This document shows positions 9,765 to 25,387 of a DNA stretch of 64,000 nt, piece by piece. The DNA comes from an uncultured Rikenellaceae bacterium. GTDB taxonomy: Bacteria; Bacteroidota; Bacteroidia; Bacteroidales; VadinHA17. The stretch is taken from assembly GCA_964514725.1 (NCBI GenBank), contig CAZEUL010000004.1, positions 66,881 to 130,880 of the forward strand, given 5' to 3'. The notes under the pieces are model-generated. The model saw nothing but the letters and a program-made list of their open reading frames with translations. It did not search any database and was not told where the DNA came from. Position numbers and translations under genes: made by a program. Positions within the stretch are counted from its first letter, which is position 1, and each line of letters starts with the position of its first letter.

Positions 9765-11120
9765 ATGAAAATCATTAGAATACTGGCCATTTTCATTTCA
9801 TCCTTCACAATTGCAATCAATAGTCCTTCACAGGTTGTCCCTGAAAGACAATGGCCCGGATACAGGGGCTATATGTTATCAGGTGTTCTGGATAATGCCG
9901 GACTACCGGAAACATTTGATTTTGAAAAAAATCTGAATATAAAATGGAAGATCAGTATCCCGGGGATGGGATTGTCAAGCCCGTCAATTTGGGGCGACAG
10001 ATTATTCATCACTTCCGCTGTAAGTGAATCAGATAAATCAGGAATTAAACCAGGAATTTATGGTGAAGTTATCCCTGTTAATGATTCCTCAATACATGAA
10101 TGGAAGGTCTACTGTATTAATAAATATACGGGAAAGATTATCTGGGAAAGAACAGCCTGCAAGGGAATACCTAAAGTAAAAAGACATCCCAAATCGACAC
10201 ACGCAAATAGTACTGTTGCCACTGACGGGAAACATGTTGTTGCATTTTTTGGATCTGAAGGTCTGTACTGCTATGATACTGATGGTAATCTTAAATGGCA
10301 GAAGGATTTCGGTGTCCTGAAATCAGCCTTCTTCATCATGAAGAATGCTGAGTGGGAGTTTGCAAGCTCTCCGATTATTTATCACGGGGTGCTTGTAATC
10401 CAGTGTGATGTCTTGGAAAATTCATTTCTTGCCACATTTGATGCTGAGACAGGGAGAGAAATATGGAAAATGAGCAGAGATGAATATCCAGGATGGTGTA
10501 CTCCAAACATTTACATGTTCAATGGAAAAACATATATAGCAGTGAACGGTTTTAAGCACAGAGGCGGTTACGATTTTCTGACAGGAAGGGAGATATGGAA
10601 AATGTCAGGAGGAGGGGATATTCAGATTCCATCTCCAATAACAGGGAATAATCTGATCTTTTTTAATTCTGCACATGGAAAGTATTCTCCCATCATGGCA
10701 ATAAAGACAAACGCAGCAGGTGATATCACCCTACGGGAAAATGAATTATCGAACTCAGGTGTTCTCTGGTATCTGCCGCGCGGAGGATCCTACCTTCATA
10801 CATTGCTGCTTTACAGAGATCGTCTCTACAACGTAAATTGGAATGGAACAATCATGTGCCTTGATCCATATTCAGGTAAGGAGATTTATAATGCAAAACT
10901 GGGAAAAGCGGGTAGCTTTGTTGCATCACCCGTTGCTTCCGATGGCCGTATATATATTGTAGATGAAATGGGAACAATATATATAATTCAGGATGGTGAT
11001 AATTTTAAATTGCTTGCAGAAATTCCAATGAATGAGGTATGTCTGACGGCTCCGGCCATAACAGACGGCTTTATTTACTTCAGAACACAAAATCATTTAT
11101 ATGCCGTAGGAAATCAATAA
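9765..11120 (+). CDS. PQQ-like (BamB-type) beta-propeller repeat protein, secreted
   Basis: Has a signal peptide, then WPGYRG, then repeated blocks of the form G.(I/L)(Y/F).....G.L.(C/A).D..(T/S)G...W. It is a paralogue of the propellers at 16394, 17506, 22303 and 23828. Confidence 0.8.
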   Translation: MKIIRILAIFISSFTIAINSPSQVVPERQWPGYRGYMLSGVLDNAGLPETFDFEKNLNIKWKISIPGMGLSSPSIWGDRLFITSAVSESDKSGIKPGIYGEVIPVNDSSIHEWKVYCINKYTGKIIWERTACKGIPKVKRHPKSTHANSTVATDGKHVVAFFGSEGLYCYDTDGNLKWQKDFGVLKSAFFIMKNAEWEFASSPIIYHGVLVIQCDVLENSFLATFDAETGREIWKMSRDEYPGWCTPNIYMFNGKTYIAVNGFKHRGGYDFLTGREIWKMSGGGDIQIPSPITGNNLIFFNSAHGKYSPIMAIKTNAAGDITLRENELSNSGVLWYLPRGGSYLHTLLLYRDRLYNVNWNGTIMCLDPYSGKEIYNAKLGKAGSFVASPVASDGRIYIVDEMGTIYIIQDGDNFKLLAEIPMNEVCLTAPAITDGFIYFRTQNHLYAVGNQ

Positions 11121-11130
11121 AATGAGTTTG

Positions 11131-14100
11131 CTATTCCTTTCTGATACCTGCAATCAGCAGTTCACTTTTTATTGATTCAAGCGAGACATACAAAGCCGTA
11201 AAACCTGTGACAATTATCAGGCTGATCATCAGCAGAATGGTCATCCATGGAATTTCCGGATTATTCTTTAATGAAGGTAAGGTTGAAATAATTGCTGAAA
11301 TAAATCCTATAGCAACTCCTGAGATAAGAATCCTTACGTGTTCCCTGAAAACCATATTTCTTATATCTCTTAGTGAAAAACCTGTCGCCATCATTATTCC
11401 GAACTCCCTTTTCCTATGAGTGAAGTTCCGGAGAAGAACAAAACCGAGTCCGATAACTCCAAGGATCAGACCTATACCTCCAAGTATCAAAAAAACAGAT
11501 AGATATGTATTGGTGACAACAAAAAAGGATGCCAGCCTGTCACTCGCCTTTTCAAAATAGACACCATAGCTGGAAAGTCTATCCGTTAATGTATTCTTAT
11601 AATACTCTGACAATTCTTCTTTTCCATTGACCAGAAAAATCTGATTACCAGAAACTGAAGGGAAGTACTTTTTAAAGTTTTCTCTACTAATTAATACAAA
11701 CCCCTGAAAGACAGAGGCTTTTAATCCTGCTGCAATAATTATGTTTATAGACTGCCCTGTTTCAGCTCTAAACTTAAGTGTATCACCTGGTTTAAGTTTT
11801 AGTCCGTATTGCAAGACTGTCTGGTCGGCAATCCCGTATAAAGTATTATCTCCTGCCGTTTGATGCAGAAAATCCCAAGAATTTTCAACAGATTGATTTT
11901 TCAATTTAGTTGAAAAGGAAAATGATCCTCTTGCAATGAATTCTGAAGGATCAACACCCAAAAGGGGAGGAGCAGTAATATGATTCAAATTCAGGCAACT
12001 GGCATCATTCCCATAATACTTCAATGCCTGTACAAAGTCAAGATCTTTCAGGCTGTCTTCTTTTAAGCCAAATTCTTTAATACCCTCTTTTCCTTTAAGG
12101 TCATAAACAACAGGAACAGCTGTCTCTCCCCAAAGAAGGAATCCTCCCGTCCCACCTGAAGGCTTCAGCATACTGTCGCTGATGGTCATTCTATTTACCC
12201 CAGTAATAATGACCGCAAACAGACCTGCCGCAATAAAAACAATCGGTGTGACTGCCTGTGCTGAATTGTAAGTGTAGAACCTTGAAGAAATGTGTTGATT
12301 AATTCGTATATCTGATAACTTTTTATTGCCAGACCCTATATATAAGTGTCGGGTAATTAAAACCATTGAAACAAAAAGAAATACACCTCCAGCAAATGAC
12401 AAAGAAGTTGAATAGGAAGGGAAAAATATAGCGCAAAGGAGGCATGAAACAGTAATTATTGAAAAAATGAGGAGTAAATTACGACTCCTTTCTATTGAGG
12501 GTCTTTGCATTTTTTCACTTTTAAGAGTGTTAAGGCTCTTTAAGAATGATCCTGACCTTAACCCGATAATTACCATGATCAAAGCTTCTGAAATGATGAA
12601 CCCGGCGGTGAGGATACCTGGATCAAAAGCAGCATTAAGCGTGTCCGTCTGAACCGTGCCCTGCCATACAGAATTAAGAGCTTTGATAATAAGCAAGTTA
12701 AATAACCATCCCGTAAATGTACCAACAGAAACCCCGATCAGTGATATCAGAAATGTTTCAAGATAGATATATTTCCGGATCCATTTATTTGTAAATCCAA
12801 GGTAAAAAAAAGCTGATAAATGATTCGATTTTGACTCGTAATAGGTTCCTGTTACAAGAGTCAATAAAATTAATGCTGACAAGATAAGAAAGAAGCCAAG
12901 GCCAAGAAATAAAGTACTGAAATCTACACCTTTACTTGCAGCTCTTAAAGTTTCAGCCCTGAGGTTGGTAATTGAAAATCCCGATTTATATGGGTCAAGC
13001 CGACCTGTAAGTTTTGTTCTTATTTCATTTTCTGTGACACCTTCGGGAAATCTGATCGCTGTTGCAGGTCCGAAGTTGCTTCCCCACAGTTTTTTTCCTG
13101 TTTCATAATTTATGAAAGCCTTTGGTATTCCTCTGTACTTGTTCCAGTAATCTTCATCTTTTCTACGTATCTGATTAAGGTCGATATTAACTCCGGCATC
13201 CCAGTCTGAGCATGACTCTCTTCCTGAGATACCTGGAAATTCTGGCATCAAAAGGGAATCAGACCAGACATCCTGGATCTTTTTTATTTCATAAACAACA
13301 AATTTACCGGAAATCTCCTCAAGTTTGTTCAATGGATCAGGTGAATACCACGTTAACGTGAGCGTATCGCCTCTTTCTGCTGACAGATCATTTGCCAGCC
13401 AATTGTTTATTATTATACCATTTTTATCAGGGATGGCAGGATATAATGAAGTATCAAGGGCCGCAATAAATGAATATGGAGTTGTCTTGCCTTTATTACT
13501 GATCCTGTTGGCGAGATATGTTATTACAGGACTTCCCGATGGAAATATTCCTCTGATTTCATCAATTGTTACCTGGTCAATGAATATTCGTTCTGAAATT
13601 ATTTCATACTCTTTTGTAGCTGGTATGTACCTTATCTTTAGACCTATATCATCTGGCTTGAGTATCTCAGCAAGACCTTTATGTATCTCTGATTCATCTG
13701 AGCCACTTTCTTTGTCAATAATTAGTCTGTTAATTTTAGGAATCTTACCATCTGATGTCAGCAGATCAGATCGGTTAATAAAAACATTCATAGGTTCTAT
13801 CTGGCTGATTCCAAGGGAAAAATTACCTGCCCGGACCTGGTCAGCAATTTTTGATATTTTAAGAACAACATTGCCGGTATTTGTCCTTTCTGGTGCAAAT
13901 GGAGCATCGGCAGGCAGGTCGCTTATTCCGTTGAAACGAATCACTATATCGTCTCCTGCTTTCAGGTCAAGATATCTGGCAAGCTTTTCATTAACAACTG
14001 CTTCCCCTTTACCGATTTTAAGGTTTTCAATACCATTAAAGTGCATGAAATCATCACCAATTCCAAAAATCCTTACATCAAGGGCAGACTGATTGGTCGT

Positions 14101-14397
14101 TAGTTTGGTACAAAATCCTGTTAACTCCAGCAATCCGATGCAGGCTATTCCGGTTTTTTGACTTAGTCTGGCCACTAAACCTGGTTCAAAATATCTGTTT
14201 GAGGAACTAATGACAATTCCAGCATTGCCAAGCTTTTCCAGTGATGTTCTTTTCAAACTGCTTCTCACTGAAGTTCCTGTCATCAGCGAACCTGTAATTA
14301 CTGCTGTCAGCAGGATAATAACAAGATTCAGATAAAGGACTCCTCTCTTGTTATATAAAATTGACTTTCTGACTATATGAAACAAATTCAATTTCAT
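11131..14397 (-). CDS. ABC transporter permease with two FtsX domains (YbbP/MacB-like)
   Basis: 1088 aa. An N-terminal TM is followed by a large extracytoplasmic domain and a four-helix FtsX-type bundle, and this unit repeats once more. The final block is REFGIMMATGFS, typical of FtsX permeases. It lies 10 nt downstream of the ATPase gene. Confidence 0.85.
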   Translation of the reverse strand: MKLNLFHIVRKSILYNKRGVLYLNLVIILLTAVITGSLMTGTSVRSSLKRTSLEKLGNAGIVISSSNRYFEPGLVARLSQKTGIACIGLLELTGFCTKLTTNQSALDVRIFGIGDDFMHFNGIENLKIGKGEAVVNEKLARYLDLKAGDDIVIRFNGISDLPADAPFAPERTNTGNVVLKISKIADQVRAGNFSLGISQIEPMNVFINRSDLLTSDGKIPKINRLIIDKESGSDESEIHKGLAEILKPDDIGLKIRYIPATKEYEIISERIFIDQVTIDEIRGIFPSGSPVITYLANRISNKGKTTPYSFIAALDTSLYPAIPDKNGIIINNWLANDLSAERGDTLTLTWYSPDPLNKLEEISGKFVVYEIKKIQDVWSDSLLMPEFPGISGRESCSDWDAGVNIDLNQIRRKDEDYWNKYRGIPKAFINYETGKKLWGSNFGPATAIRFPEGVTENEIRTKLTGRLDPYKSGFSITNLRAETLRAASKGVDFSTLFLGLGFFLILSALILLTLVTGTYYESKSNHLSAFFYLGFTNKWIRKYIYLETFLISLIGVSVGTFTGWLFNLLIIKALNSVWQGTVQTDTLNAAFDPGILTAGFIISEALIMVIIGLRSGSFLKSLNTLKSEKMQRPSIERSRNLLLIFSIITVSCLLCAIFFPSYSTSLSFAGGVFLFVSMVLITRHLYIGSGNKKLSDIRINQHISSRFYTYNSAQAVTPIVFIAAGLFAVIITGVNRMTISDSMLKPSGGTGGFLLWGETAVPVVYDLKGKEGIKEFGLKEDSLKDLDFVQALKYYGNDASCLNLNHITAPPLLGVDPSEFIARGSFSFSTKLKNQSVENSWDFLHQTAGDNTLYGIADQTVLQYGLKLKPGDTLKFRAETGQSINIIIAAGLKASVFQGFVLISRENFKKYFPSVSGNQIFLVNGKEELSEYYKNTLTDRLSSYGVYFEKASDRLASFFVVTNTYLSVFLILGGIGLILGVIGLGFVLLRNFTHRKREFGIMMATGFSLRDIRNMVFREHVRILISGVAIGFISAIISTLPSLKNNPEIPWMTILLMISLIIVTGFTALYVSLESIKSELLIAGIRKE

Positions 14398-14407
14398 TGT
14401 CTTTCAG

Positions 14408-15088
14408 CTATGAACGACCACCAGGTTGCAGCAAGCCATCAGTCAATGTTAATCGTATGGACATCTTTTCGGCAAGGCTTAAAGAGTGGGTAGCCAGAAT
14501 AAGGGTGATCCCATAATCCTTATTCATTCTTAGGAGAATGTTTCCAAGATTTTCTGAGTTTTTTTTGTCAAGCGATCCGGTTGGTTCATCCGCTAACAGC
14601 AATGATGGCTTATTGATCAAAGCTCTTACAAGTGCAACTCTTTGAGCTTCTCCACCTGAAATTGTTGAGGGATATTTGTCAGACAATTCTCCAATTCCGG
14701 TATCTTCCATCAATCTGGCAGCATACTCATTTCTTTCCCTGAATTCATTTTCATTCAACCGCGCCGGAATCAGAGGTATCATTATATTTTCCTTTACGGT
14801 AAGGTAGGGGAGAAGCAGATGGTCCTGAAAAACAAAGCCTATGTGCCTGTTTCTGTAAGAGGCAGATTCATTGATATCATAGCTGAGAACCGATTTACCT
14901 TTAAATAATATTTCACCATTATCAGGTCTGTCAAGAAGTCCAATAATATTGAGCAAAGTTGTTTTGCCGGAGCCTGAAGGTCCGGAAATTGAAATCAGAT
15001 CTCCCTCTTTAACCTCAAGTGAAAGATTATTAAGGACCAATCCCCTCTGTGGATATGATTTTGTCAGGTTAGTTACCTTTAACATCAT
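14408..15088 (-). CDS. ABC transporter ATP-binding protein (LolD/MacB/YbbA type)
   Basis: Walker A is GPSGSGKTTLLN, the signature is ISGGEAQRVALVRAL, Walker B is LLLADEPTGSLD and the H-loop is ATHS. Confidence 0.95.
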   Translation of the reverse strand: MMLKVTNLTKSYPQRGLVLNNLSLEVKEGDLISISGPSGSGKTTLLNIIGLLDRPDNGEILFKGKSVLSYDINESASYRNRHIGFVFQDHLLLPYLTVKENIMIPLIPARLNENEFRERNEYAARLMEDTGIGELSDKYPSTISGGEAQRVALVRALINKPSLLLADEPTGSLDKKNSENLGNILLRMNKDYGITLILATHSLSLAEKMSIRLTLTDGLLQPGGRS

Positions 15089-16382
15089 TATTATTCATAG
15101 TTTTATTATATACCTCTGAAAGTCCTTCAGACATTTTATCCAACGAAAGCTCCTGTTTTACACCTTCGCGTCCACGGTTTCCTAACCTGGAAAGTAATTC
15201 CCTGTCTTTTAATAACTTACAAATATTCGAAGAAAGTTCCTCAACCGTATCAGGCATATATACTATTCCTCCTCCAGTTTTTTCAATTATTTCAGGGAAT
15301 GCTCCAGTTGCAGGTTGTACCACAGGGACCCCAGCGCTGTTTGCTTCAAGAATATATAAACCATAACCGTCATATTTACGAACAGGGACGCTTATGATAT
15401 CAACGTCCTGAAAGAATTCAATTTTCTTTGTGCCCTGAAACTCAGGATAAATCTTTATTGATTTCTCAAGATGGTGTTCTCTTATTTTCCTGATTTGCTT
15501 GGAAATAAATGGTTTGTCGGCTCCCGTATAACCGCCGCACACCTTAAGTGTCAGATCAGGGATCAGTCCTTTGGTTTTTATATCTATGAAGGCATCCACA
15601 AGTTTATCAAACCCGTTATGATGATTCACCCGACTGAAATAACCCACTGAAGGATAGTGTAAATCATTTTTAGTAATAGTAAACTGTTCAGGATCAAAAC
15701 CAAGCGGTACCACTATCAAATTGTCACCTTTAAGCCCGGTTTTGCTTATGAAAAGGTTTTTATAATAGTTGCTGGGAGTGATGAATGTATCGACATATAC
15801 AGCCTCCCGTGCTATCATCTCCCAGGCTCGGGAACGATAAGGTTCCGCCATATCATCTATCCAGTCATCTTCATTGAGTAGTGAACAGACGATTTTAACC
15901 TTTATTCTTTTCCTGAGCTGTCGGGCAATTCCAAGAATCAAAGCATTGGATAAATGTATTATGTCAGGCTTCCCTTCCTTCATCAGGTATTTAACGAGTC
16001 TGTCTACTTCTGTTTTTCTAAAGGCATTATCACCTTCAATCATACTGATTGTGAGTTCCTCATAGCCTTCAGTGCTGGTTGTGCCAGCCTGTTTTGCTGC
16101 CAGCTTCAGAAAAAGAGATGAATCAAGGAATTTGTCAAAAAACGATGGCATGTTCCTTAGAAGCCTTACCTTTTCACGCAAATACATTGATATAGCTCCA
16201 AAAAATAAATTCCTGTCGAAACTATTATCAACAGACGTCCTGTCAGGGGGCAAATAGAGCGGTATTGCTTTTACCACTATTTCGGGAACTTTCCTTATAG
16301 CCCTGACATAAAGCATGTCACGGTAACAGTTTCCACAATAGAATGATCCTCCAGAACCAGTAATGAGATATACAATTTTCAT
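15069..16382 (-). CDS. glycosyltransferase family 4 (GT-B fold) protein with an unusual N-terminal FYCGNC motif
   Basis: The C-terminal half has the GT4 retaining-transferase block YGLYILEANSAGVPVVQPATGAFPEIIE...GGIVY (E-x7-E region). The N-terminus is MKIVYLITGSGGSFYCGNCYRD. Confidence 0.8.
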   Translation of the reverse strand: MKIVYLITGSGGSFYCGNCYRDMLYVRAIRKVPEIVVKAIPLYLPPDRTSVDNSFDRNLFFGAISMYLREKVRLLRNMPSFFDKFLDSSLFLKLAAKQAGTTSTEGYEELTISMIEGDNAFRKTEVDRLVKYLMKEGKPDIIHLSNALILGIARQLRKRIKVKIVCSLLNEDDWIDDMAEPYRSRAWEMIAREAVYVDTFITPSNYYKNLFISKTGLKGDNLIVVPLGFDPEQFTITKNDLHYPSVGYFSRVNHHNGFDKLVDAFIDIKTKGLIPDLTLKVCGGYTGADKPFISKQIRKIREHHLEKSIKIYPEFQGTKKIEFFQDVDIISVPVRKYDGYGLYILEANSAGVPVVQPATGAFPEIIEKTGGGIVYMPDTVEELSSNICKLLKDRELLSRLGNRGREGVKQELSLDKMSEGLSEVYNKTMNNNDVKGN

Positions 16383-16393
16383 ATCGATTGAAG

Positions 16394-17524
16394 CTATTTC
16401 CCGAAAGCCAGAAGCCTCCCGTCGTCTGTTAAGAAATAAAACCTGTCTTTTGTTACAGCAGGAGAACTGCTTACAGGCGAACCTGCATTAAAGCTCCAGA
16501 CCTTTTTCCCATCAACTATCCTTAGCATATACAAATTACCGTCATTGCTTCCAAAAAGCACATGAGCGGATCCCGCCACTGCTGAACCACTTATTCTCCC
16601 ATTGGTCCTGAATTTCCATTCAGACTTGCCTGTAACTGAATTATAACAATAAAGATACTTATCCTCGTTCCCAATCATAACCCTGTTGCTACCAACAGCG
16701 GGTGATGCAACAAATGACCCTGACTCCTCATTTGCAGATACTTTCCATGCAATTTTGCCCCTTGCTATATCGATACAATAAAGATTTCCTTCATAGTCAC
16801 CAAAATACGCTTTCTTATTAAACAGAGCCGGGGAGGCAGCAATGTAAACACCAATCTCTATGGTGTCTTTCTGCCTTCCTGTCAAAGGATCAGTTAACCT
16901 GACAATACCATCACACCCTCCAAAAACAATACTATTATCAGCAATTGCAGGTGTTCCGTTTACATAGTTTTGAGTTTCAAGTTTCCATAGCATCCTGCCT
17001 GTAGCGGGATCAACACAATGAAGGAAATAATCGTAACTTCCAAAAACCAGCCCGGCCCTTTTACCTGTAGTCCATACATTTGCTGATCCGGCAATTTGAT
17101 TTTCAGTTTTATAGGTCCAGACAAGTTTTCCTGTTAATTTATTAACAGCACGCATAATACCATCAGATGAGCCCACAAATACTTTATCATCAAATACCAC
17201 CGGAGGGGCTTCTATTGAATTACCCGTATCTAATTTCCATTTTATTTTACCATCGGCTGAAACAGCAAAAAGTGTTCCTTTATCATTACCAAAGAATATA
17301 AGGTTATCACTTACAACAGGAGAGGATTTTGATCTGGATCCTGAAGAAAGGCTCCAGATAAGCTTTGGCACCGATGGAAACTGTACCGAAGTATTTCCCG
17401 ACAGATCAGCTTTTCCTCTGAAAAGAGGCCATTCGTTATCATTCACCTGTCCTTCTGCATGAAGAAAAAACAGGATCAACAACAGGATTAATGTGTTTAT
17501 TCTTTTCAATCTGCAGAGATACAA
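16394..17524 (-). CDS. PQQ-like beta-propeller repeat protein, secreted
   Basis: Has a signal peptide and WPLFRGKADLSGN. Eight repeats of the type G.(L/I)(F/Y)A(V/L)...G...W follow. Confidence 0.8.
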   Translation of the reverse strand: MYLCRLKRINTLILLLILFFLHAEGQVNDNEWPLFRGKADLSGNTSVQFPSVPKLIWSLSSGSRSKSSPVVSDNLIFFGNDKGTLFAVSADGKIKWKLDTGNSIEAPPVVFDDKVFVGSSDGIMRAVNKLTGKLVWTYKTENQIAGSANVWTTGKRAGLVFGSYDYFLHCVDPATGRMLWKLETQNYVNGTPAIADNSIVFGGCDGIVRLTDPLTGRQKDTIEIGVYIAASPALFNKKAYFGDYEGNLYCIDIARGKIAWKVSANEESGSFVASPAVGSNRVMIGNEDKYLYCYNSVTGKSEWKFRTNGRISGSAVAGSAHVLFGSNDGNLYMLRIVDGKKVWSFNAGSPVSSSPAVTKDRFYFLTDDGRLLAFGK

Positions 17525-19194
17525 AATAGATTGTTTTTTGATCTTATAAAAATTCTATTCTCTGAAAAGGCTGGAGTACAATCGGTCCTTTCTCCCACAG
17601 GCGATTCTGAAATAAGCTGAAACTCCGGCCCGGCTTTGACAATATGCATGACTCCGCTTCTGTCAAGAAAATATACTTTACCATCAGCTATTATTGGTGA
17701 TGCATAAAATTGATCTTCAAAATAATGTGACCATAACGTATCTCCTTTTTCAGCATTATAGCAGGCTACATCCCCATTTCCGGTTGAAAGGAACAAAAAT
17801 TCATCAGTTGCAACCGGACTGGAAACATCCGGAGTAAATGCATTATCTTCCCATACTGTTGATCCTGATTTGCCCGGCTTCAGCGCAATAATCTTATAGT
17901 AATCAGTAACAGCATAAACCATTTTGCTATTTACTGCCAGTGATGGCGCCACATCACCGGATACTCCCTGAAGGCTCCATAATTCCTTTCCGGTAACAGG
18001 ATCAAAAGATGAAACATTCGGATTGCCGTTAATCAGAACCTGCGGCTGACCATCGAAAGCTGCCAGCACAGGTGAGGAATTCACCGGTCGCCCCGACCTT
18101 ATGGTTTCCCATTTTAAATCTCCGGATTTTAAGTCAAATCCCAAAAGCTTTATAATTTCCTGACTGTCGTACTGGACAAGCAGAATGTTCTCATAAATTA
18201 AAAGGGACCCCGAGTAACCGTAGGAACTTTGAGGGACACCAATATTCTTTCCCCAGATCAGCTTGCCATCATGATCAAAACAGACCAGATTGCCATTTCC
18301 GAAAATAGCACACACATATTTCTCATTTACTGCTGCTGTTGGTACCGCCATCCCTGCCTCTGCATCAGATTCAGGAACTTCTTTCGACGATCCGGGAAAC
18401 TCGGATGCGCTTGCAGTCCAGATAATGTTGCCGGCATTCTTATCTATACAATATACTTCACATACTGCTTCATCAGCACCAGTCAGGAATAACTTATCCC
18501 CCCAGATTACCGGCGAGTTTTTACCATGGAGTGGAATTGGAAGTTTCCATTTTATATTTTTCCCCTCTGATCCATTCCACTCTGTCGGAAATCCTGATCC
18601 CCCTGCAATTCCCCTGCTTCCTTCACCCCTGAAAAAAGGATAATTGACATTTCCCGGCAGTGTGATTCCTGAAACATGAGCTGAAGAAACAATTTCTCCT
18701 TTGGCGGATCTTCTTCCTGGTGATGGGAGTTCAGATCTGAGAATAAAAGAGGATATTATTGCAAGAATAGTAACTGCTGATGCAGATATAACAAGATACT
18801 TCTGGTTTTTGACTTTCTCTGCTTTAATGTCGGGCCTGCCGGTCAGTAAAGAACGTGGAGGTTTTTCACTGCCTGCAATCAATCTCTGAAAAAGAACGAA
18901 AATCAATGCACCTGCCAAAAGAAGATAGGAGCCCGTCTCAATCTGCCATCTGGAAGAAAAGTATGCTCTCCTTGCCATTAAGTCTATTGCCCTTACCTGT
19001 TCAGCTTTATCTTTATTATCAGGATCCTTTTCAAATTGTTCCCTGATAGTCTGAAGGGAAGGACTATCGAGTGGTTTAATTGTCTTAAGCTGAATAAGAC
19101 CAAACAGCATTGTCAATGCTATTAAAATGGTAAATACTCCTGAGACCAGGCTTATTCCCTTAAAAACCTTGATATTTTTCTCAGAGAATTTCAT
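17506..19194 (-). CDS. PQQ-like beta-propeller protein with a three-helix N-terminal membrane domain
   Basis: Three hydrophobic helices are present (GISLVSGVFTILIALTMLFGLI, GSYLLLAGALIFVLF, YLVISASAVTILAIISSFIL), then YPFFRGEGSRG and propeller repeats. I place the start at the ATG of MKFSEKN (19194), which overlaps the upstream stop as ATGA. The ORF track begins at 19233. Confidence 0.8.
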   Translation of the reverse strand: MKFSEKNIKVFKGISLVSGVFTILIALTMLFGLIQLKTIKPLDSPSLQTIREQFEKDPDNKDKAEQVRAIDLMARRAYFSSRWQIETGSYLLLAGALIFVLFQRLIAGSEKPPRSLLTGRPDIKAEKVKNQKYLVISASAVTILAIISSFILRSELPSPGRRSAKGEIVSSAHVSGITLPGNVNYPFFRGEGSRGIAGGSGFPTEWNGSEGKNIKWKLPIPLHGKNSPVIWGDKLFLTGADEAVCEVYCIDKNAGNIIWTASASEFPGSSKEVPESDAEAGMAVPTAAVNEKYVCAIFGNGNLVCFDHDGKLIWGKNIGVPQSSYGYSGSLLIYENILLVQYDSQEIIKLLGFDLKSGDLKWETIRSGRPVNSSPVLAAFDGQPQVLINGNPNVSSFDPVTGKELWSLQGVSGDVAPSLAVNSKMVYAVTDYYKIIALKPGKSGSTVWEDNAFTPDVSSPVATDEFLFLSTGNGDVACYNAEKGDTLWSHYFEDQFYASPIIADGKVYFLDRSGVMHIVKAGPEFQLISESPVGERTDCTPAFSENRIFIRSKNNLFCISAD

Positions 19195-20543
19195 TTTTTG
19201 TTTTTTATCGTTACCGGACAGAAGCTGAAACATTTCCCGCAGCTAACACATCTGCTGCGATCTGGCTCATAATCTCTCCGGATATTTCTGATTGTTTTTC
19301 TGTAAAAACTTAATCCTAGTGTAACTCCAAGGAATATGCCAACCCAGGGAGAACCCTTCATGAATCTGGCTTTAATCTGCTGTTCTTCAGCAAACAGCTC
19401 TTCCTCAGTCTTTCCTGATTCATAGAAGGCAATAGCTGCCTTGGATTTAGCTTTAATACCTTTTTCATTCTCAAGCCTTATTTCCCTTGCCAGTTTTACA
19501 TTATTATTTACCCGTGAAAGAACCGGTGCCAGATTATTGAAGATCACTGCAAAACCAGCAGCAAGAACCAGAATCAGAAGTATATAAAGGTAGCTTCTTC
19601 CCTTTTTGTCATTTGGTTTTTCTTTCACTTCAGGTGGATCGGATTGGAGAATAACATCATACGGACATCCTGACTCACACAGTCTGCAGTTCCTGCATTC
19701 GGCAGGAGTAATTGTCAGATGCTTCAGTGAAAACCTTGAAAATATTCCAAGCAGAGCACCATAAGGACATAAATATCGGCAGTAAGGTCTGTTTACAAAA
19801 ATCCCCACAACTAGAAGGAGAGACCCAAAGATAATCATTGTAAATGGTGCATTGATCCTGAATATTCCGACAAATGGATCATAACGGCAAATAACAAACT
19901 GACTTTCTGTGGCTGCAAACAGAACTGCAAGTCCAAGATAAACAAATGGTATTGCGGTCAAAACTTTCTCAACCTTTTCAGGAACTCTAACCTGCCTGAA
20001 GCCTGTAAGTTCCTGAATTGCTCCAAGAGGACAGACACCTGCACAAAAAACTCTCCCGAACAACAGGGCAAAAATCAAAGGTGATATAAAGAACAGAAGT
20101 ACTGACAATGGAATTGCATAGGTGCTGTTGAAAAGTGCAAGGGATACATTCTGAATCGACCCAATTGCACAAATACAACCCTGCCGGTAAAAACCAAAAT
20201 AAGCAAGTGAAAAAACTGATAACCAGATTAATCCACTACGTGATCTTTTTTTAATGGCCAGCCATGCAGCAACTACCATTGCTGCTACGAGAACAGCTAC
20301 ATCCATATATTCCCACATCGGACCTCTCTGATTTAGGAACTGGTGTGTGGGGAAATTGTATCCGCTTTCAAATTCTGGCCGCGGAAATCTTTGAGGCTGG
20401 GCATAAGCTTTCGGCTGCCATATAAAAAGCATAACTATGAGAAGTACCGGCAGATATTTTCTTATCCTTTTCAAATTTTTAACGTTTAAGCTTATCACCC
20501 CTCCAACTTTTTTTATTAACCAAATAACTTTTAAATTTTTCAA
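19191..20543 (-). CDS. integral-membrane polyferredoxin of the NapH/NosH/MauN type
   Basis: Multiple TM helices are present. There are two CxxxCP motifs (FCAGVCPLGAIQE, CRYLCPYGALLG) and two CxxCxxCxxxCP [4Fe-4S] motifs (CRNCRLCESGCPY, CVSCGKCFSFCPV). The start is uncertain: TTG at 20543 in the track, and an internal TTG giving MKRIRKYLPVLLIV is also possible. Confidence 0.8.
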   Translation of the reverse strand: MKNLKVIWLIKKVGGVISLNVKNLKRIRKYLPVLLIVMLFIWQPKAYAQPQRFPRPEFESGYNFPTHQFLNQRGPMWEYMDVAVLVAAMVVAAWLAIKKRSRSGLIWLSVFSLAYFGFYRQGCICAIGSIQNVSLALFNSTYAIPLSVLLFFISPLIFALLFGRVFCAGVCPLGAIQELTGFRQVRVPEKVEKVLTAIPFVYLGLAVLFAATESQFVICRYDPFVGIFRINAPFTMIIFGSLLLVVGIFVNRPYCRYLCPYGALLGIFSRFSLKHLTITPAECRNCRLCESGCPYDVILQSDPPEVKEKPNDKKGRSYLYILLILVLAAGFAVIFNNLAPVLSRVNNNVKLAREIRLENEKGIKAKSKAAIAFYESGKTEEELFAEEQQIKARFMKGSPWVGIFLGVTLGLSFYRKTIRNIRRDYEPDRSRCVSCGKCFSFCPVTIKNKK

Positions 20544-21136
20544 CCCTTTTCAATTTGTCCATCTGGTTTTTTTAAATCCTTTCTTAAGTAAGGCTCGGCA
20601 GCCGGAACCCTTACTATCGCGTCAGAAGGACATATTCGTGCTATTGCACACTGGTTGCAATTAACACATAGGTTATGCATGATTTGAAGATATAAAGAGC
20701 CGTTCCCAAAATCAAAACATGCTTTTACACATTTCGAACAACCATCACACAGATCCTCATCAATTACGTATTCAAAATACGGTTCTTCAACAAACTTCCT
20801 TTTAATGGCTCCTACCGGACACAGCTGGTTTTCAGCCCCAGTGTCATAACGTTTTGCACCCTGTCGCAGATAACCCGGACAAAAATCACAATATCCGCAC
20901 ATTGGGTATGCATTTGTGCACTTTACAGCAGAAGGGGTCATGACACAGGCTGTCTTACATTGTTCACAACTTGTACATTTGTAAGGATCAATCTGCCAGA
21001 CATATCCTTTTATTTTGCTTCTGCTTGCAAGAATGGCAGGGATAGTTAATACCGGAACTGCCATTGCCAGCCTGCCTGCATTCTTAACAAAATCTCGTCT
21101 TGATTTTATCCTGCCTCCCTGATTCTCCATTTTCAT
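20540..21136 (-). CDS. Tat-exported multi-[4Fe-4S] ferredoxin of the NapG/NosG/MauM type
   Basis: The twin-arginine signal is SRRDFVKNAGRLAMA. Cluster motifs are CTSCEQCKTAC, CGYCDFCPG, CDGCSKCVKAC and CVNCNQCAIARICP. I place the start at MKMENQ (ATG at 21136), which overlaps the stop of the small upstream ORF as ATGA. Confidence 0.8.
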   Translation of the reverse strand: MKMENQGGRIKSRRDFVKNAGRLAMAVPVLTIPAILASRSKIKGYVWQIDPYKCTSCEQCKTACVMTPSAVKCTNAYPMCGYCDFCPGYLRQGAKRYDTGAENQLCPVGAIKRKFVEEPYFEYVIDEDLCDGCSKCVKACFDFGNGSLYLQIMHNLCVNCNQCAIARICPSDAIVRVPAAEPYLRKDLKKPDGQIEKG

Positions 21137-21306
21137 TCGGATAAGTAGGTTGAACAATCAGACCTGCCTGAACATATACCTCTTCCGGGGCATGTACCAC
21201 AATCAGCAGCTTTTGCCGCCCTCCTTCCAAGAAAAATTGCAAGACCTGTAATTAGAGTCAATAACAGGTAGCTGATTATTTTATTCAAGAATTCTGATCG
21301 TTTCAT
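21133..21306 (-). CDS. 57-aa Cys-rich single-pass membrane peptide (resembles FeoB-associated Cys-rich membrane proteins)
   Basis: Below the ORF-track size cutoff and found by manual translation: MKRSEFLNKIISYLLLTLITGLAIFLGRRAAKAADCGTCPGRGICSGRSDCSTYLSE*. It has one TM helix, a basic stretch and a tail with five cysteines. Its stop overlaps the ferredoxin start (ATGA). Confidence 0.55.
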   Translation of the reverse strand: MKRSEFLNKIISYLLLTLITGLAIFLGRRAAKAADCGTCPGRGICSGRSDCSTYLSE

Positions 21307-21375
21307 GTTTTATTTGAGTATACAATTTTACTTTTATCCTTCTTTTTCATTGTCATTTAAGCCACATATCTAATA

Positions 21376-22299
21376 TTATTTCTTTCTTTCAAATACGTAT
21401 ATTTTTGAATCTGAAGGATTTGCTGCATAAATAAGATTGTTGTTGAGAACTGCTATATCAAGCGGAACGGAGGCGGGAAATTCATTGGCGGAAGAAATCA
21501 ACTCAACGAATTTTCCACTGTCATCAATTTTCTTTATTCTGTTAATCCCCTTTTCAGCCGTGATAAAACCTCCTGGAATAATTGCAAAGTGAGCAGGATT
21601 ACAACAGCCACAGAAATTCTCAGGCTCACTTCCGGAATCACCGAAGGAGCTCAACAGTTTTCCATTGATATCCCGTTTTTCAATTTTCTTATAACCTGTA
21701 TTAGCTACATAAATGAAATTATCACCTGTTAATGCGACATCAAAATAACCACTTGGAATATTGAATGTTTTGTCCGATTTACCGATGATGCTTTTTATAA
21801 TTCCATCTTTATCAAGGACATATAATGCTTTATTCGCAGCATCAGCAAATACTATATAGGAAGTGCAGGAGGCAACTGATGTTATCAGCGCATTTTCTTC
21901 ATAAGGACCCCAATCATCAACTTTTTTCCCATTTATATCATAAACCATAATGTATGTACCCGTGGCTGCATATACATTGCCAACTGATGATGCCAATGCA
22001 GAAACAGGCTTTTCTGTATTGATTTCCCATCTCATCCTGAAATCATTATCATAACATATTATTCCGGTCTCTCCACCGGCAATGATTAAAGAATCCTCCG
22101 AAACAGCTATGGCATAGAGACTTCCAATTGAAGGTTTGAATGTTTTAATTACATTCCATGCAGGTGAGAGAGTATCATAGATGTCAGATGAGGTCTCTGT
22201 CTTTTTCAAGGTCTTTTTTAATGCCGAATCAACCACAATATATGCGGCAAATACCATAATTAAGACAATAATAGTTATAGTTGCCCACCTTTTATCCAT
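21376..22299 (-). CDS. membrane-anchored NHL-like six-bladed beta-propeller protein
   Basis: The N-terminal anchor is WATITIIVLIMVFAAYIVV. NHL-like repeats follow (IYVLDKDG, IYVANTGYKKIEKRDINGK, INRIKKIDDSGK, IYAANPSDSKIYVF). It also carries an unusual FCGCCNPAHF motif. Confidence 0.65.
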   Translation of the reverse strand: MDKRWATITIIVLIMVFAAYIVVDSALKKTLKKTETSSDIYDTLSPAWNVIKTFKPSIGSLYAIAVSEDSLIIAGGETGIICYDNDFRMRWEINTEKPVSALASSVGNVYAATGTYIMVYDINGKKVDDWGPYEENALITSVASCTSYIVFADAANKALYVLDKDGIIKSIIGKSDKTFNIPSGYFDVALTGDNFIYVANTGYKKIEKRDINGKLLSSFGDSGSEPENFCGCCNPAHFAIIPGGFITAEKGINRIKKIDDSGKFVELISSANEFPASVPLDIAVLNNNLIYAANPSDSKIYVFERKK

Positions 22300-22302
22300 A
22301 AC

Positions 22303-23766
22303 TTAATTATTTTTACCAATATCCAGACAAAGCATATTATGCGCATCTCTCAGAATCAGATATCTTCCTGCCAGGGCCATTGGACTCCATGCTTCAACAG
22401 CCTGCATGACCTTATGACTTGCAACCTGAACCGCCGTTGAATTCTCGATCCTGAAAAGGTAAAGTGTTCCTTCATCGTCAAGAAGAAAAAGCTTATTCCC
22501 TCTTACAATATACGGTCCCATTCCTTTGCCGTATCTGTTTTCTTTACCACTCGACCATACAGGTGTAATAAGGTCAGATGTCTTGTAACATGCGAGTTGT
22601 CTTTTCAAAGGACCTGCATTTTCAGGTAACACGATCCAGAGATTGCCGTTAAGAAGTATGGGAGTCTGCTGTTCACTTGCGATCCCGGCCGACGACTTGT
22701 GCTGCTCAGTTACTGTTGCTTTAAAACCTTGTCCTTCTTGAGTTATCTTAATTCTGGCTGCCCCTGCTCCGTAACTTCCGAATACCGCTATTTCACCATT
22801 GCCAAGATAAACAGGAGATGCTACGGTAATGGCCGGATTCCATTCATTAGTCGTCCATAGTATTCTGCCAGTATCGTCACCTTCAGCCGACACACCAATA
22901 ACTCCTCCCAGCGCAGCATATACATACATCTTCTTTCCGTAGATAGTCATTGGCATTATAGATGTATGGGACATTCTCAGTGAATCAGGATTAGGCGCCT
23001 TCCATAGAACTTCACCGGATGCGCAGTCAACCCCAATCATAATAGATTTTCCGCCTGGCGCAAATATTGCCACATTATTATCGATCAATGGACACTGGCC
23101 GCAATAGAATTCAGGGGTTATTTTGCCCTTTATTGTTCCCGGTATCCCGTATTCTTTTTCGAGATCAATTGACCAAAGAAGCTTTCCATCAAGTGGATCT
23201 GCACACATAACATGTGAACGTGGTCCGATAGTAATAATATACTTATCGGTTATGGCAGGAATGGTCCGTGAGTACCCGTGATTTCTCTTAAATTCCACAG
23301 TATACCATTTTCTCCAGAGCTCATTACCTGACTTAAGTGAAAAACATCTAAGCATATCTGCTTTTCTTTTCTCATTATAGTCAAGAATATAAACCCTTCC
23401 ATTCCTTACAGCAGGACCGGCATAACCCTCTCCAAGCGTTATCTTCCATAAAACCGGCGGCCCGGATGTATCCCAGCCTTCAGTTAATGGCGTCCTGTCC
23501 TTGCTTATATTGTCAAAATCCTCTCCTCTGAAACGCGGCCAGTCACCAGGCAAAATGTCCATCTCAATCGTACCAAGTGAATCAAAGTATTCACCAATGA
23601 TAACTGAATCTGATAATTGTTTTTGGGGAGGACGATCATCCATCCCCGGGACACGTTCAACAACTTTATAAGACGGAGTTGCAAAAATCCACCATAGAAA
23701 TGCTGCTATGAACAGAAAAGCCGTTACACTTAAGATCAATATGTTATTCTGCTTTAATGTCGGCAT
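22303..23766 (-). CDS. membrane-anchored PQQ-like beta-propeller protein
   Basis: The N-terminal anchor is ILILSVTAFLFIAAFLWWIF. WPRFRGEDFDN and propeller repeats follow. It contains the motif FYCGQCP. Confidence 0.8.
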   Translation of the reverse strand: MPTLKQNNILILSVTAFLFIAAFLWWIFATPSYKVVERVPGMDDRPPQKQLSDSVIIGEYFDSLGTIEMDILPGDWPRFRGEDFDNISKDRTPLTEGWDTSGPPVLWKITLGEGYAGPAVRNGRVYILDYNEKRKADMLRCFSLKSGNELWRKWYTVEFKRNHGYSRTIPAITDKYIITIGPRSHVMCADPLDGKLLWSIDLEKEYGIPGTIKGKITPEFYCGQCPLIDNNVAIFAPGGKSIMIGVDCASGEVLWKAPNPDSLRMSHTSIMPMTIYGKKMYVYAALGGVIGVSAEGDDTGRILWTTNEWNPAITVASPVYLGNGEIAVFGSYGAGAARIKITQEGQGFKATVTEQHKSSAGIASEQQTPILLNGNLWIVLPENAGPLKRQLACYKTSDLITPVWSSGKENRYGKGMGPYIVRGNKLFLLDDEGTLYLFRIENSTAVQVASHKVMQAVEAWSPMALAGRYLILRDAHNMLCLDIGKNN

Positions 23767-23827
23767 AGTGGTTTATCACTAACGTCCAAATTTATTATTT
23801 AAAACAGGACTAAAGCAAGAGTAATAA

Positions 23828-25081
23828 TCATTTGGCTTTTATATTATATACCGCCATATAATCTCCGTGTCTGAGAAACAATCTTCCTTTGTTAATTACC
23901 GGATGTGACCAGTATGGCCCTGAACCTTTTGTAATTCTGAAAGAGCTTATTATGTCAAGCTTTTCGCTGTTTGGTCTAACCAGCGCGACATTACCGTTCT
24001 TTTCCTCATATATGTATATTAAACCATCAGCTGAGACAATTGATCCCTTATTGTTCCAGTCGGTGATCCACATTGTTTTTCCTGTGGTCCAGTCAGCACA
24101 AACCCATCTCCCCTTAGAGTTATTGTCATGCGTAGAGCTGTAAATGTAATTCCCGATTAGGACCATTCCACCTACATGAGGATTTATATCAGGATTTTTC
24201 CAAACCAGTTCGGGATCTTTTCCATCAGCCATAATCCTGATCTTTGCTGATGTCTGTCCGTAACCATTTGCAGCAAAAATAAATCCATCCTTATAAATTG
24301 GGGTATGAATGTAATTTTTTCCACCTTTCTGATCGGCATTGACTGATCCGAAGTTAAATTTCCAAAGTATTCTCCCATTTGAGGCATTAACACCAATTAT
24401 CCATGTTGGAGTATGAGTCACGATTGTCTTTATTCCTTTATCCTCAATAAGCAGGGGATTCACATATTGTGAGCCTTCATTTAATGAAGGAGTCTCCCAA
24501 ACAACCTTCCCGTTATCAACATTGAAAGCGACCATTGCTGCAATATTGCCTCCGGGAGTAACAATCACCTTGTTGTCAAAAACCAGAGGTGATTCAGATA
24601 TGCCGAAACGGGGAACAGTTGCATTGTATTTCTTGTAATAATCTACCATCCATAGGATTTTACCTTCTGTTGAAATACATGAAAGTTCACCCATGCCGCT
24701 GACAACAAATAATTTGCCGTATGCAAATGTAGGAGTACAACGACTCTCCGGCGCACTGTTCACCTTCGACATATTCCCGTATTCAACATCCCACTTCTTT
24801 TTACCGTCCTGCGTAAAGGCGGTCAGCACATCCTTATCACCCCTTATGCCAGTGATATATACGGCATCATTTGTAACTGTGGCACTCGAATAACCCATAC
24901 CAATTCCGGTTGCTTCCCATATAAGTGCCGGCCCCCCTGCAGGCCATGATTTCAGTAATCCGGTCTCATTATAAATTCCTGTCCGCCCTGGCCCTCTCCA
25001 TCCTATTTCCTGACCTGATGAAGTGCCTGTTGACAAAAGAAATAAAACTGCAAATGAGAAAATAATATGACTGCTTTTCAT
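23828..25081 (-). CDS. PQQ-like beta-propeller protein, secreted; first gene of the operon
   Basis: The signal peptide is MKSSHIIFSFAVLFLLSTGTSSGQ. GWRGPGRTGIY and propeller repeats follow. A 390-nt AT-rich region lies upstream. Confidence 0.8.
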   Translation of the reverse strand: MKSSHIIFSFAVLFLLSTGTSSGQEIGWRGPGRTGIYNETGLLKSWPAGGPALIWEATGIGMGYSSATVTNDAVYITGIRGDKDVLTAFTQDGKKKWDVEYGNMSKVNSAPESRCTPTFAYGKLFVVSGMGELSCISTEGKILWMVDYYKKYNATVPRFGISESPLVFDNKVIVTPGGNIAAMVAFNVDNGKVVWETPSLNEGSQYVNPLLIEDKGIKTIVTHTPTWIIGVNASNGRILWKFNFGSVNADQKGGKNYIHTPIYKDGFIFAANGYGQTSAKIRIMADGKDPELVWKNPDINPHVGGMVLIGNYIYSSTHDNNSKGRWVCADWTTGKTMWITDWNNKGSIVSADGLIYIYEEKNGNVALVRPNSEKLDIISSFRITKGSGPYWSHPVINKGRLFLRHGDYMAVYNIKAK

Positions 25082-25379
25082 AGTGCGATTATTGATTTTT
25101 GATTAATAAATCTTGCAATATAAAAAAACAAAATTGACAATCTGCAAAAACTTAATATATACCATATTTAATGATGAGTATTTAATTTTTTTTAACATCT
25201 GTCCGACCTTCATAATAACTCCGGCTAAATATTATGACACCTCATTATACAAATTAATATTTTTCACAATTTATCGAATTTATCTTATATTTTGTAATTG
25301 TTACAATAAATATTCTATCATATTTTATATTTTTACAAATATTTTTTAATAATTTATTTTTGTATTTGATGTTATTTCT

Positions 25380-25387
25380 TAGCTTTG
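25380..25387 (+). promoter_or_regulatory. candidate Bacteroidota -7 promoter box (TAGCTTTG) for asnB
   Basis: Matches TAnnTTTG and lies 85 nt upstream of the asnB ATG in an AT-rich divergent intergenic region. Confidence 0.4.

Follow-up and report, generated by a model that had tools for sequence, protein, structure and literature searches.

What donates electrons to a conserved iron-sulfur module encoded among a series of beta-propeller proteins, and what is served by it? The question is raised by a stretch of 64,000 nucleotides from an uncultured Rikenellaceae bacterium (contig CAZEUL010000004.1 of assembly GCA_964514725.1, positions 66,881 to 130,880 of the forward strand), hereafter referred to as the window, in which a series of eleven minus-strand open reading frames (ORFs) runs from 25081 down to 11131 and is followed by a convergent plus-strand ORF at 9765-11120. 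An earlier note on this DNA had interpreted the series as a single operon of propeller paralogues built around a quinol dehydrogenase of the NapG/NapH type. The present analysis indicates that the genes form a conserved unit, that the family to which they belong is, judging from gene content, fed by cytoplasmic NAD(P)H, and that the cluster in the window appears to be a reduced derivative of that system, from a subclade that has lost the NuoEF/GltD input module. The system is a variant of the NapGH/NosR type of electron-export module that is undescribed in the literature searched. The reading proposed here, in which an NAD(P)H-fed electron-export machine, input-less in the window, works together with propellers and a type VII ABC pair, is held with about even confidence.

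The minus-strand genes are labelled A to K in the order of transcription and the convergent ORF is labelled L (aa, amino acids; TM, transmembrane):

23828..25081, minus strand: A, soluble periplasmic PQQ_2 propeller with a predicted Sec signal, 417 aa (PQQ_2 84 bits, no TM segment, signal-like N-terminus)
22303..23766, minus strand: B, TM-anchored eight-bladed PQQ_2 propeller, 487 aa (PQQ_2 85 bits; TM residues 9-27)
21376..22299, minus strand: C, TM-anchored six-bladed NHL-type propeller, 307 aa (TM residues 5-23; motif C-x-C-C-N-P-x-H)
21133..21306, minus strand: D, mini-protein of 57 aa (degenerate Tat-like N-terminus KRSEFL, one hydrophobic helix, C-x2-C-x5-C-x5-C)
20540..21157, minus strand: E, Tat-exported periplasmic ferredoxin (SRRDFVK; set of 16 Cys for four [4Fe-4S] clusters)
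19191..20543, minus strand: F, membrane polyferredoxin of the Fer4_5 (NapH/NosR/CcoG) superfamily (about 7 TM; Fer4_5 x2 57 bits)
17506..19233, minus strand: G, PQQ_2 propeller with a three-TM anchor, 575 aa, obligate partner of F (PQQ_2 114 bits; TM 29-47, 97-115 and 147-165)
16394..17524, minus strand: H, soluble eight-bladed PQQ_2/BamB-like propeller with a predicted Sec signal, 376 aa (Beta-prop_ACSF4 182 bits, PQQ_2 139 bits)
15069..16382, minus strand: I, cytoplasmic GT4 glycosyltransferase, accessory (Glycos_transf_1 77.9 bits, cut-off 26.4; Glyco_transf_4 37.8 bits, cut-off 28.5)
14408..15088, minus strand: J, ABC ATPase of the LolD/FtsE/YbbA type (type VII) (ABC_tran 120 bits)
11131..14397, minus strand: K, duplicated-FtsX permease of 1088 aa, part of the universal core (FtsX x2 56 bits)
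9765..11120, plus strand: L, convergent PQQ_2 propeller with a predicted Sec signal, 451 aa (PQQ_2 58 bits)
25082..25471, no strand assigned: AT-rich divergent intergenic region between gene A and asnB, presumed to hold the promoter

The positions, spacings and domains given by the earlier reading were reproduced by ORF, Pfam and motif scans, and its signal and membrane assignments agree with the predictions, which place Sec signals on A, H and L, single N-terminal anchors on B and C and three TM segments in G. Pfam finds PQQ_2 in A, B, G, H and L, a multi-cluster Fer4 in E, two Fer4_5 domains and a Fer4 in F, GT4 domains in I, ABC_tran in J and two FtsX domains in K. Assignment to named families was rejected for the propellers, E, F, I, J and K, all of which score below every NCBIfam cut-off that they match.

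Relatives were collected by a scan with the F alignment, taking one genome per GTDB species; the window proteins were mapped onto all the loci, and per-gene counts refer to the 40 species-level loci with complete 10-kb flanks. A relative of F is encoded in at least 587 species-level genomes of the Bacteroidota and the Planctomycetota, and an exhaustive HMMER search of 1.84 billion representatives finds 392 clusters that match F end to end at E<1e-30. Homologues are common in metagenome-assembled genomes (MAGs) of the Bacteroidales, the closest named genomes among the matches listed being those of uncultured Rikenellaceae and Bacteroidales MAGs. Cultured carriers among the best 80 loci are Marinifilum fragile, M. 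flexuosum, Labilibaculum sp., Gaoshiqia sediminis and Ancylomarina sp., and the same set includes Cytophagales MAGs and a Pirellulales contig of 61% GC. E, F and G are present in all 40 loci, B and C in 39, and H and A in 38 each, A in zero to five tandem copies. Three long contigs carry the same twelve genes in identical order with differing flanks, and no consistent flanking gene or regulator was found across the genomes, the flanks holding glycosidases, sulfatases, AsnB, an FGGY kinase, a beta-lactamase and DJ-1. Because the same gene order recurs in dozens of species, the arrangement lies far beyond chance, and this strong synteny over the 40 full loci supports the earlier proposal that the genes belong together as one conserved unit.

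The electron donor of the family is suggested by two genes that the relatives carry between G and H. The first gene after G, here called X, encodes a fusion of NuoE and NuoF of about 780 aa with an RnfB-like di-cluster tail (nuoF_fam 479 bits, NuoE model 141 bits), and the usual next gene, Y, encodes a protein of about 520-550 aa in which a HoxU/NuoG-N-terminal 2Fe-2S domain is fused to a GltD-like FAD/NAD(P)H domain. X occurs in 35 of the 40 full loci, often 2 nt from G or overlapping it, and in every distant context fetched (the Pirellulales locus L076 and the loci L086, L087 and L089). Since a NuoE-NuoF fusion, usually accompanied by the HoxU/GltD-like protein, lies at this position in so large a share of the loci, the family is predicted to be fed by NAD(P)H. 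The loci that lack X although there is room for it downstream of G (L001-L005, L010 and L013) all belong to the near group of the window, with F proteins 64-75% identical, and in an intermediate group the GltD-like gene is shortened to its Fe-S part. As X is absent only near the window and present in distant lineages, the cluster studied here is best regarded as a reduced derivative; with the X/Y pair deleted, the donor of this subclade must differ, and may be menaquinol, a ferredoxin or the same proteins encoded elsewhere. Foreign genes have been inserted between the NuoEF-like gene and the GltD-like or H genes at two loci (L069 15496-19103 and L041 17845-18804), these being a McrBC restriction pair (AAA_5/EVE and McrC) in Gaoshiqia sediminis and a ThuA-domain gene in a Prolixibacteraceae MAG.

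A second line of evidence comes from fusion proteins. Nine of the best 150 matches of F are about 975-1136 aa long, and all six that were tested (clusters P0256, P0261, P0264, P0281, P0287 and P0344, from several high-GC lineages) are fusions of F to a PQQ_2 propeller. Residues 460-1040 of P0261 cover the whole of G including its three-TM linker (35% identity, E 9e-107), and two of the fusions were seen in genomic context in the order E, F::G, X. Because they are fused in these lineages, F and G are expected to act as a single, physically tied unit, which backs the earlier suggestion that the propellers are partners of the iron-sulfur module. The point of fusion lies between the last ferredoxin motif of F and the N-terminus of G, on the positively charged side of the membrane; the propeller follows three TM segments later, and Sec signals are found on its paralogues. 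With this geometry, the two CxxCxxCxxxCP motifs of F would lie in the cytoplasm and the G propeller in the periplasm. The cytoplasmic motifs can thus be pictured as the docking place of the NuoEF/GltD module. Since they carry Sec signals, TM anchors or Tat motifs, all the propellers, E and D are predicted to be periplasmic.

The most distant loci help to separate the core from the accessories. L087 (40% GC, F 34% identical) keeps the order A-B-C-D-E-F-G-X-Y'-H-I, Y' standing in the place of Y, with tatA and tatC alongside, whereas L089 (61% GC) holds only E-F::G-X-Y-J-K-H, with unrelated glycosidases upstream and with A, B, C and I absent. Based on the gene content of these two loci, the cross-phylum core would consist of E, F, G, the NAD(P)H module, H and the ABC pair J/K, and A, B, C, D, I and L would be lineage-specific accessories. 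The description of the locus as an eleven-gene operon therefore stands as far as a conserved unit is concerned, but it mixes the core genes E, F, G, H, J and K with the accessories. A PF03773 permease, closest to the SO_0444-type Cu/Zn efflux permeases, adjoins the cluster in L087 (137-2161, where it sits between tatA and tatC), in L089 (17977-18412) and in L081 (about 1717-2463); it is a hint of metal handling but was rejected as a core component, being found in only 3 of about 89 loci.

Among the iron-sulfur proteins, F carries the motifs C167xxxCP, C255xxxCP, C283xxCxxCxxxCP and C432xxCxxCxxxCP, which are invariant in 46 sequences. Its invariant cysteines are C125, C167, C171, C255, C259, C283/286/289/293 and C432/435/438/442, and seven conserved cysteines lie outside the ferredoxin motifs (C123, C125, C167, C171, C219, C255 and C259). 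The two CxxCxxCxxxCP halves of the ferredoxin domain are about 140 residues apart with a TM hairpin between them, unlike the ferredoxin motifs of NapH, which are adjacent. F has only two His residues, neither of them conserved, so any transfer across the membrane would be haem-free. Residues 139-301 align with residues 53-221 of NapH, the core of two Fer4_5 domains. The scores are far below the relevant thresholds, at 57.3 bits for napH_ (TIGR02163, cut-off 213.05), 53.4 bits for NapH PRK09477 (NF007013, cut-off 234) and 58 bits for NosR (cut-off 1000). A search of PDB sequences with F gave no match, and the profile of the F family matched generic ferredoxin domains only. Two conserved segments lie outside the part aligned with NapH, namely R-F-P-x-P-E-F-x-S-G-Y-x2-P at residues 52-65, after the signal-like N-terminus, and G-C-I-C-x2-G-x-I-Q-N at residues 123-132, which is predicted to face the periplasm; they might serve for binding a partner or a cluster.

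The cluster cysteines of E are all at least 93% conserved among 79 orthologues. E reaches 9.1 bits on mauM_napG (TIGR00397, cut-off 178.85) and 11.7 bits on NapG PRK09476 (NF007012, cut-off 269). D is missed by gene callers and yet was found in all 30 close loci examined, and is counted here as a real gene. In distant loci its slot is filled by ORFs of 67-88 aa with a hydrophobic stretch, four Cys and a canonical RRxFL motif (NRREFL in L073, NRRSFL in L078 and SRRDFLKK in L087), which suggests that D was ancestrally a Tat substrate and that KRSEFL in the window is a degenerate version.

The propellers differ in their conservation. The earlier note had ascribed to the PQQ-like proteins a shared N-terminal motif of the type W-P-x-(F/Y)-R-G; it is present in B (WPRFRG), G (YPFFRG), H (WPLFRG) and L (WPGYRG), while A has WRGPG only. 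None of the propellers has a lipobox Cys at the N-terminus, SPI-type signals or TM anchors being found instead. They reach 45-75 bits on the PQQ-dependent dehydrogenase model TIGR03075 (cut-off 480) and 26-144 bits on the BamB equivalogs TIGR03300 and NF008351 (cut-offs 285 and 423), and the 23-35 bits obtained on PF01011, for which H and L lie just above or near the cut-off of 26.7, reflect repeat similarity only. At family level no propeller matches a known enzyme, the PQQ-dependent dehydrogenases (TIGR03075, TIGR03074 and PF01011) included. The statement of the earlier note that cofactor signatures are lacking was upheld: motif, Pfam and NCBIfam scans of the twelve products found no CxxCH and no haem, molybdopterin or copper signature, nor any of NosZ, NosD or NosL.

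B is the most conserved propeller, with 95 positions at least 93% conserved in 71 orthologues, including K160-R-N-H163-G-x-S-R-T-x-P170, Q224-C-P, M265-S-H267 and Q366/T368/P369. B is also the most enzyme-like of the propellers and the first choice for a subunit that binds a ligand or performs catalysis. When the blade register is read from the repeats, the conserved His, Cys, Arg, Gln and Trp of B would gather at the mouth of the central channel. An AlphaFold2 model of B (pLDDT 84.6) has tetrathionate hydrolase and BamB as its best PDB folds (TMq 0.52-0.55). Tetrathionate hydrolase was the top match by fold and the sole profile match; it was rejected as evidence of sulfur chemistry because the match is out of blade register, with a best-domain i-E of 0.06. 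In C, the residues C232, C233, N234 and P235 of the motif are invariant, and C230 and H237 are at least 90% conserved. About 950 database clusters of C carry no informative name, a few JGI entries being labelled generically, for example as YncE or BamB. The AlphaFold2 model of C (pLDDT 85) recovers the six-bladed NHL fold, the top Foldseek matches being the NHL domains of TRIM2, Thin and Brat (TMt 0.70-0.77) and the PDB sequence match being 6d69 (E 1.2e-11); the structural comparison yielded no enzyme analogue.

The cross-phylum invariants of G are mainly structural, together with an R81/D84/R88 loop motif, and among PDB sequences G matches BamB at about 1e-7. A occurs in one to five tandem copies in other genomes and is missing from L089. 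L has the G propeller as its closest paralogue (29% identity, E 2e-56) and occurs as a convergent gene only in L001-L003, L005, L010 and L013, all of which are NuoEF-less, and is thus specific to the subclade of the window. H follows J and K in the distant L089 at 32% identity.

The remaining genes encode a glycosyltransferase and an ABC pair. I reaches none of the NCBIfam equivalogs and was not detected in the Marinifilum, Labilibaculum and Ancylomarina loci or in L089. Its residues 9-22 hold the segment G-x-G-x2-F-Y-C-x-N-C-x-R-D, conserved in 36 orthologues; a CxxC pair at such an N-terminal position is unexpected for GT4 enzymes. On the LolD, FtsE and YbbA models J reaches 219, 186 and 173 bits, each below the respective equivalog cut-off, and it is assigned at the superfamily level. 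K has periplasmic stretches of about 460 and 220 aa between its TM segments with no Pfam match, MacB_PCD included; it otherwise shows weak matches to ADOP and MacB, and among PDB sequences matches only YtrF and MacB at about 1e-4. Its homologue in L089 is 26% identical over the full length. With an FtsX-type permease, large periplasmic domains and an ATPase of the LolD/FtsE/MacB type, J and K have the make-up of a type VII ABC system. To our knowledge, the characterised type VII ABC systems all act through a periplasmic partner. H co-occurs with J and K both in the window and in the distant L089, and is by analogy the most likely candidate for that partner. YbbAP, which has a duplicated-FtsX permease, hands lipids or compounds extracted from the membrane to a periplasmic enzyme (PMC12646458).

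Taken together, these features suggest the following working scheme. The cluster would encode a multi-subunit, periplasm-facing iron-sulfur redox machine, in which electrons would enter at the cytoplasmic face of F and cross the membrane via its Cys-ligated centres, to be passed to the four-cluster ferredoxin E and probably also to the 4-Cys protein D. The donor in most lineages would be NAD(P)H, oxidised by the NuoE-NuoF fusion and the HoxU/GltD-like protein paired with it. The electrons would be used at or with the propeller assembly, whose universal members are G and H and whose most enzyme-like member is B, with C contributing its CxCC-N-P-x-H motif and A and L varying in copy number. J and K, by analogy with other type VII systems, may perform mechanical or extraction work on the same substrate through a periplasmic partner, probably H. 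Outward flow from NAD(P)H would be favoured by thermodynamics and by the membrane potential. Gene content, synteny, the F::G fusion, the NAD(P)H module of the relatives and the Tat and Sec motifs were observed directly; we infer the topology, the outward course of the electrons, any assembly larger than F with G, and what the ABC pair does.

Several observations weigh against this scheme. The direction of flow relies on thermodynamic reasoning and on the predicted topology, and PDB searches offer no solved structure as a guide to NapH-type electron transfer across the membrane. No NuoEF or GltD homologue was found by tblastn in the 64-kb window, so that no donor can be assigned there. The residues and folds of G, K, B and C identify no acceptor or catalytic cofactor, the structure and profile matches of B and C being to generic propeller folds only, and K has no conserved Cys or His. 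Finally, the 61-nt and 69-nt gaps in the series could be sites of internal promoters.

The alternatives differ mainly in where the electrons come from and in what the propellers do. F and E might form a quinol dehydrogenase of the NapGH type that is reduced by menaquinol on the periplasmic side of the membrane and delivers the electrons to propeller clients, with no cytoplasmic input. The alignment of the Fer4_5 core of F with NapH and the NapG-like build of E (Tat signal, four clusters) agree with this, and quinol would be a plausible source of electrons for the variant in the window, since the NAD(P)H module is missing there and from 5 of 15 close loci. The label given in the earlier note was, however, not sustained by the models, F scoring 57 against 213 bits and E 9-12 against 179-269 bits, and 35 of 40 loci and all distant lineages are wired to a NuoEF-like protein. 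On account of this wiring to an NADH dehydrogenase, quinol is not the evident donor of the family, though it may serve in the lineage of the window, which lost the NuoEF input. The cytoplasmic ferredoxin motifs of F are invariant even in the NuoEF-less lineage, which argues for a cytoplasmic electron partner there too. We know of no sequence signature for the quinol site of NapH or MauN. The quinol explanation is considered unlikely, and the NAD(P)H-fed scheme is preferred to it.

Two further explanations shift the weight from electron export to the envelope or to a metalloenzyme. The locus might be an envelope-biogenesis machine in which the propellers are scaffolds, the GT4 enzyme and the ABC pair make and extract or export a glycolipid or glycan, and the iron-sulfur proteins serve a single step or redox sensing. 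The propellers are nearer to BamB than to any enzyme, a GT4 gene and a LolD/YbbA-type ABC pair are part of the cluster, YbbAP sets a precedent for lipid extraction on behalf of a periplasmic enzyme (PMC12646458), and a report on mycobacteria describes PQQ-like propellers as envelope scaffolds for a glycosyltransferase (PMC13041763). The GT4 gene is, however, accessory, as its non-detection in several genera and in L089 indicates; the propeller is fused to the polyferredoxin and not to the ABC or GT4 protein; and the core is dominated by redox proteins with predicted Fe-S clusters of the order of 15, in addition to flavins, which is excessive for a sensor. The envelope role is accordingly regarded as quite improbable. 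Least probable, and in our view very doubtful, is a Nos-like arrangement, in which B would be the most likely bearer of a periplasmic metal or metal-sulfur centre that is built by the ABC system and accessories and reduced by F and E, as NosR and NosDFY serve NosZ. It draws on the formal parallel with nos clusters (a propeller, a polyferredoxin of the NosR superfamily and an ABC system), on the conserved His163, His267, Cys225 and Met265 of B, which precede the inner-strand Pro of successive blades and would by the register reading lie at the channel mouth, on the CxCC-x3-H motif of C and on the Cu/Zn-efflux-type permease beside three loci. Against it stand the lack of similarity to NosZ, NosD and NosL, already remarked in the earlier note, the presence in B of only two well-conserved His in comparison with seven in CuZ, an ABC permease of the FtsX type instead of the ABC-2/NosY type, and the rarity of the Cu/Zn permease. 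B and C are, moreover, absent from L089 and are therefore not the universal client.

Beyond the NAD(P)H-fed scheme itself, a more far-reaching proposal is put forward tentatively and as doubtful. It holds that the family is a previously unrecognised class of envelope redox system, in which a complex-I-type NADH module, possibly flavin-bifurcating together with the GltD-like subunit, sits on a NapH-superfamily polyferredoxin and drives low-potential electrons outward along a haem-free Fe-S wire to the Tat ferredoxin. There, cofactor-less propellers and a type VII ABC extractor would offer up for reduction a substrate that is insoluble or embedded in the membrane, the candidates including sulfur or polysulfide, a metal oxide, and an envelope lipid or quinone-like compound; the window would hold a derived, input-less version.

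The junctions of the genes were also examined. The spacing from A to K is 61, 3, 69, -25, -4, -43, -19, 11, -20 and 10 nt (the overlap of I and J is 20 nt), and the stop codons of K and L are 10 nt apart. Start and stop codons overlap as ATGA at D/E, TTGA at E/F, ATGA at F/G and TTGA at G/H, the last with an alternative TTG at 17509, a pattern typical of translational coupling. E probably begins at 21136, where its ATG overlaps the D stop codon, and G probably begins at 19194, where its ATG overlaps the F stop codon and the resulting length fits the 561-563 aa of the orthologues. The presumed promoter region at 25082..25471 contains no match to TAnnTTTG, and scans for sigma-70-type promoters and terminators gave no excess over the shuffled expectation.

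Several further genes were noted around the cluster in the window. An L-rhamnose utilisation set (RhaT symporter, RhaA isomerase and FGGY-family kinase) lies on the plus strand at 2794-6864; rhamnosidase-like six-hairpin genes also flank the cluster in Marinifilum and Labilibaculum (L056 and L073), probably by coincidence, these being polysaccharide-degrading Bacteroidota. Immediately upstream of propeller L, three successive and partly overlapping plus-strand ORFs at 7575-9694 encode a VTC-domain protein, a DUF4956 protein and a DUF2490 protein (a predicted outer-membrane beta-barrel), apparently a small conserved set that is possibly polyphosphate-related. Six sulfatases are arranged in tandem on the plus strand at 27297-36669, followed by a BD-FAE esterase (36760-37692, plus strand) and, downstream of the array, by an 897-aa ORF (37714-40407, plus strand) without a Pfam match at E<=1e-5. 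A 475-aa ORF on the minus strand at 40958-42385 has an N-terminal radical-SAM CxxxCxxC motif (CNLNCTYC) and is probably an anaerobic sulfatase-maturating enzyme. Three sulfatases also adjoin the cluster in L002. Two tRNA genes identified with Rfam (61191-61263 and 61820-61892, plus strand) are unrelated to the cluster.

The movement of electrons through polyferredoxins of the NapH/NosR type and the identity of their donor constitute a long-standing open point in bacterial bioenergetics. The linkage to an NADH module and the fusion to a propeller make haem-free electron export from cytoplasm to periplasm directly testable. The carriers, at least 587 species from at least two phyla, include cultured and probably tractable Marinilabiliales (Marinifilum, Labilibaculum, Gaoshiqia and Ancylomarina). 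The proteins are currently annotated as '4Fe-4S binding protein', 'PQQ-binding-like beta-propeller repeat protein' or 'hypothetical'. The acceptor, if found, could bring to light an anaerobic electron sink or a pathway of envelope maintenance that has so far gone unrecognised in Bacteroidota of sediments, digesters and gut-related habitats, and would give a function to many 'empty quinoprotein' propellers and a fifth functional kind of type VII ABC system.

A search of full-text literature, with most subscription journals outside its coverage, found no description of this gene set, in keeping with the earlier statement that no characterised system has this composition; comparison with known systems was made part by part. 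With NapGH, NosGH and MauMN the cluster shares a Tat four-cluster ferredoxin and a membrane protein with two CxxxCP and two CxxCxxCxxxCP motifs, serving periplasmic proteins. F differs from its counterparts in having a cleavable-signal-like N-terminus with the conserved RFPxPEF motif, a ferredoxin domain interrupted by a TM hairpin and additional conserved Cys, and in scoring at a quarter of the NapH cut-off, while E fails to score on NapG or MauM; the partners are cofactor-less propellers instead of NapAB, NosZ or methylamine dehydrogenase (MADH), and most members of the present family have an NADH-dehydrogenase input. The support system of nitrous oxide reductase, NosR with NosDFY and NosL, likewise brings together the genes for a membrane polyferredoxin from the superfamily of F, a beta-propeller client and an ABC system, but F is devoid of the FMN-binding periplasmic domain of NosR and reaches 58 bits against 1000, the Nos proteins Z, D and L are missing, and the ABC system is of type VII (FtsX) and not ABC-2.

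The input module of the relatives is comparable to the N-module of complex I, the HoxEFU diaphorase and the Bfu-type NuoEF, which it resembles through the FMN/NADH and Fe-S motifs of its NuoE and NuoF fusion and through the HoxU/NuoG-N-terminal 2Fe-2S domain encoded by the next gene; it is distinguished by an extra GltD-like NAD(P)H/FAD domain, by its absence from the window, and by being joined to a NapH-like polyferredoxin and a Tat ferredoxin instead of a quinone module, hydrogenase or formate dehydrogenase. BamB, the 'empty quinoprotein' propellers and tetrathionate hydrolase have their counterparts in A, B, G, H and L, which are eight-bladed and of the PQQ_2 type; the TM-scores of B are just 0.5-0.6 at 12-15% identity, and unlike BamB none of the propellers is a lipoprotein, three being TM-anchored. 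YbbAP-TesA, LolCDE-LolA, FtsEX-EnvC and MacAB-TolC correspond to the ABC pair in the LolD/FtsE/YbbA-like ATPase J and in the FtsX domains and large periplasmic domains of K. In contrast to these type VII systems, K is 1088 aa long with periplasmic domains outside any Pfam family, the cluster has no gene for a membrane-fusion-protein (MFP) adaptor, the partner would be a beta-propeller, and the ABC system is genetically tied to a redox chain.

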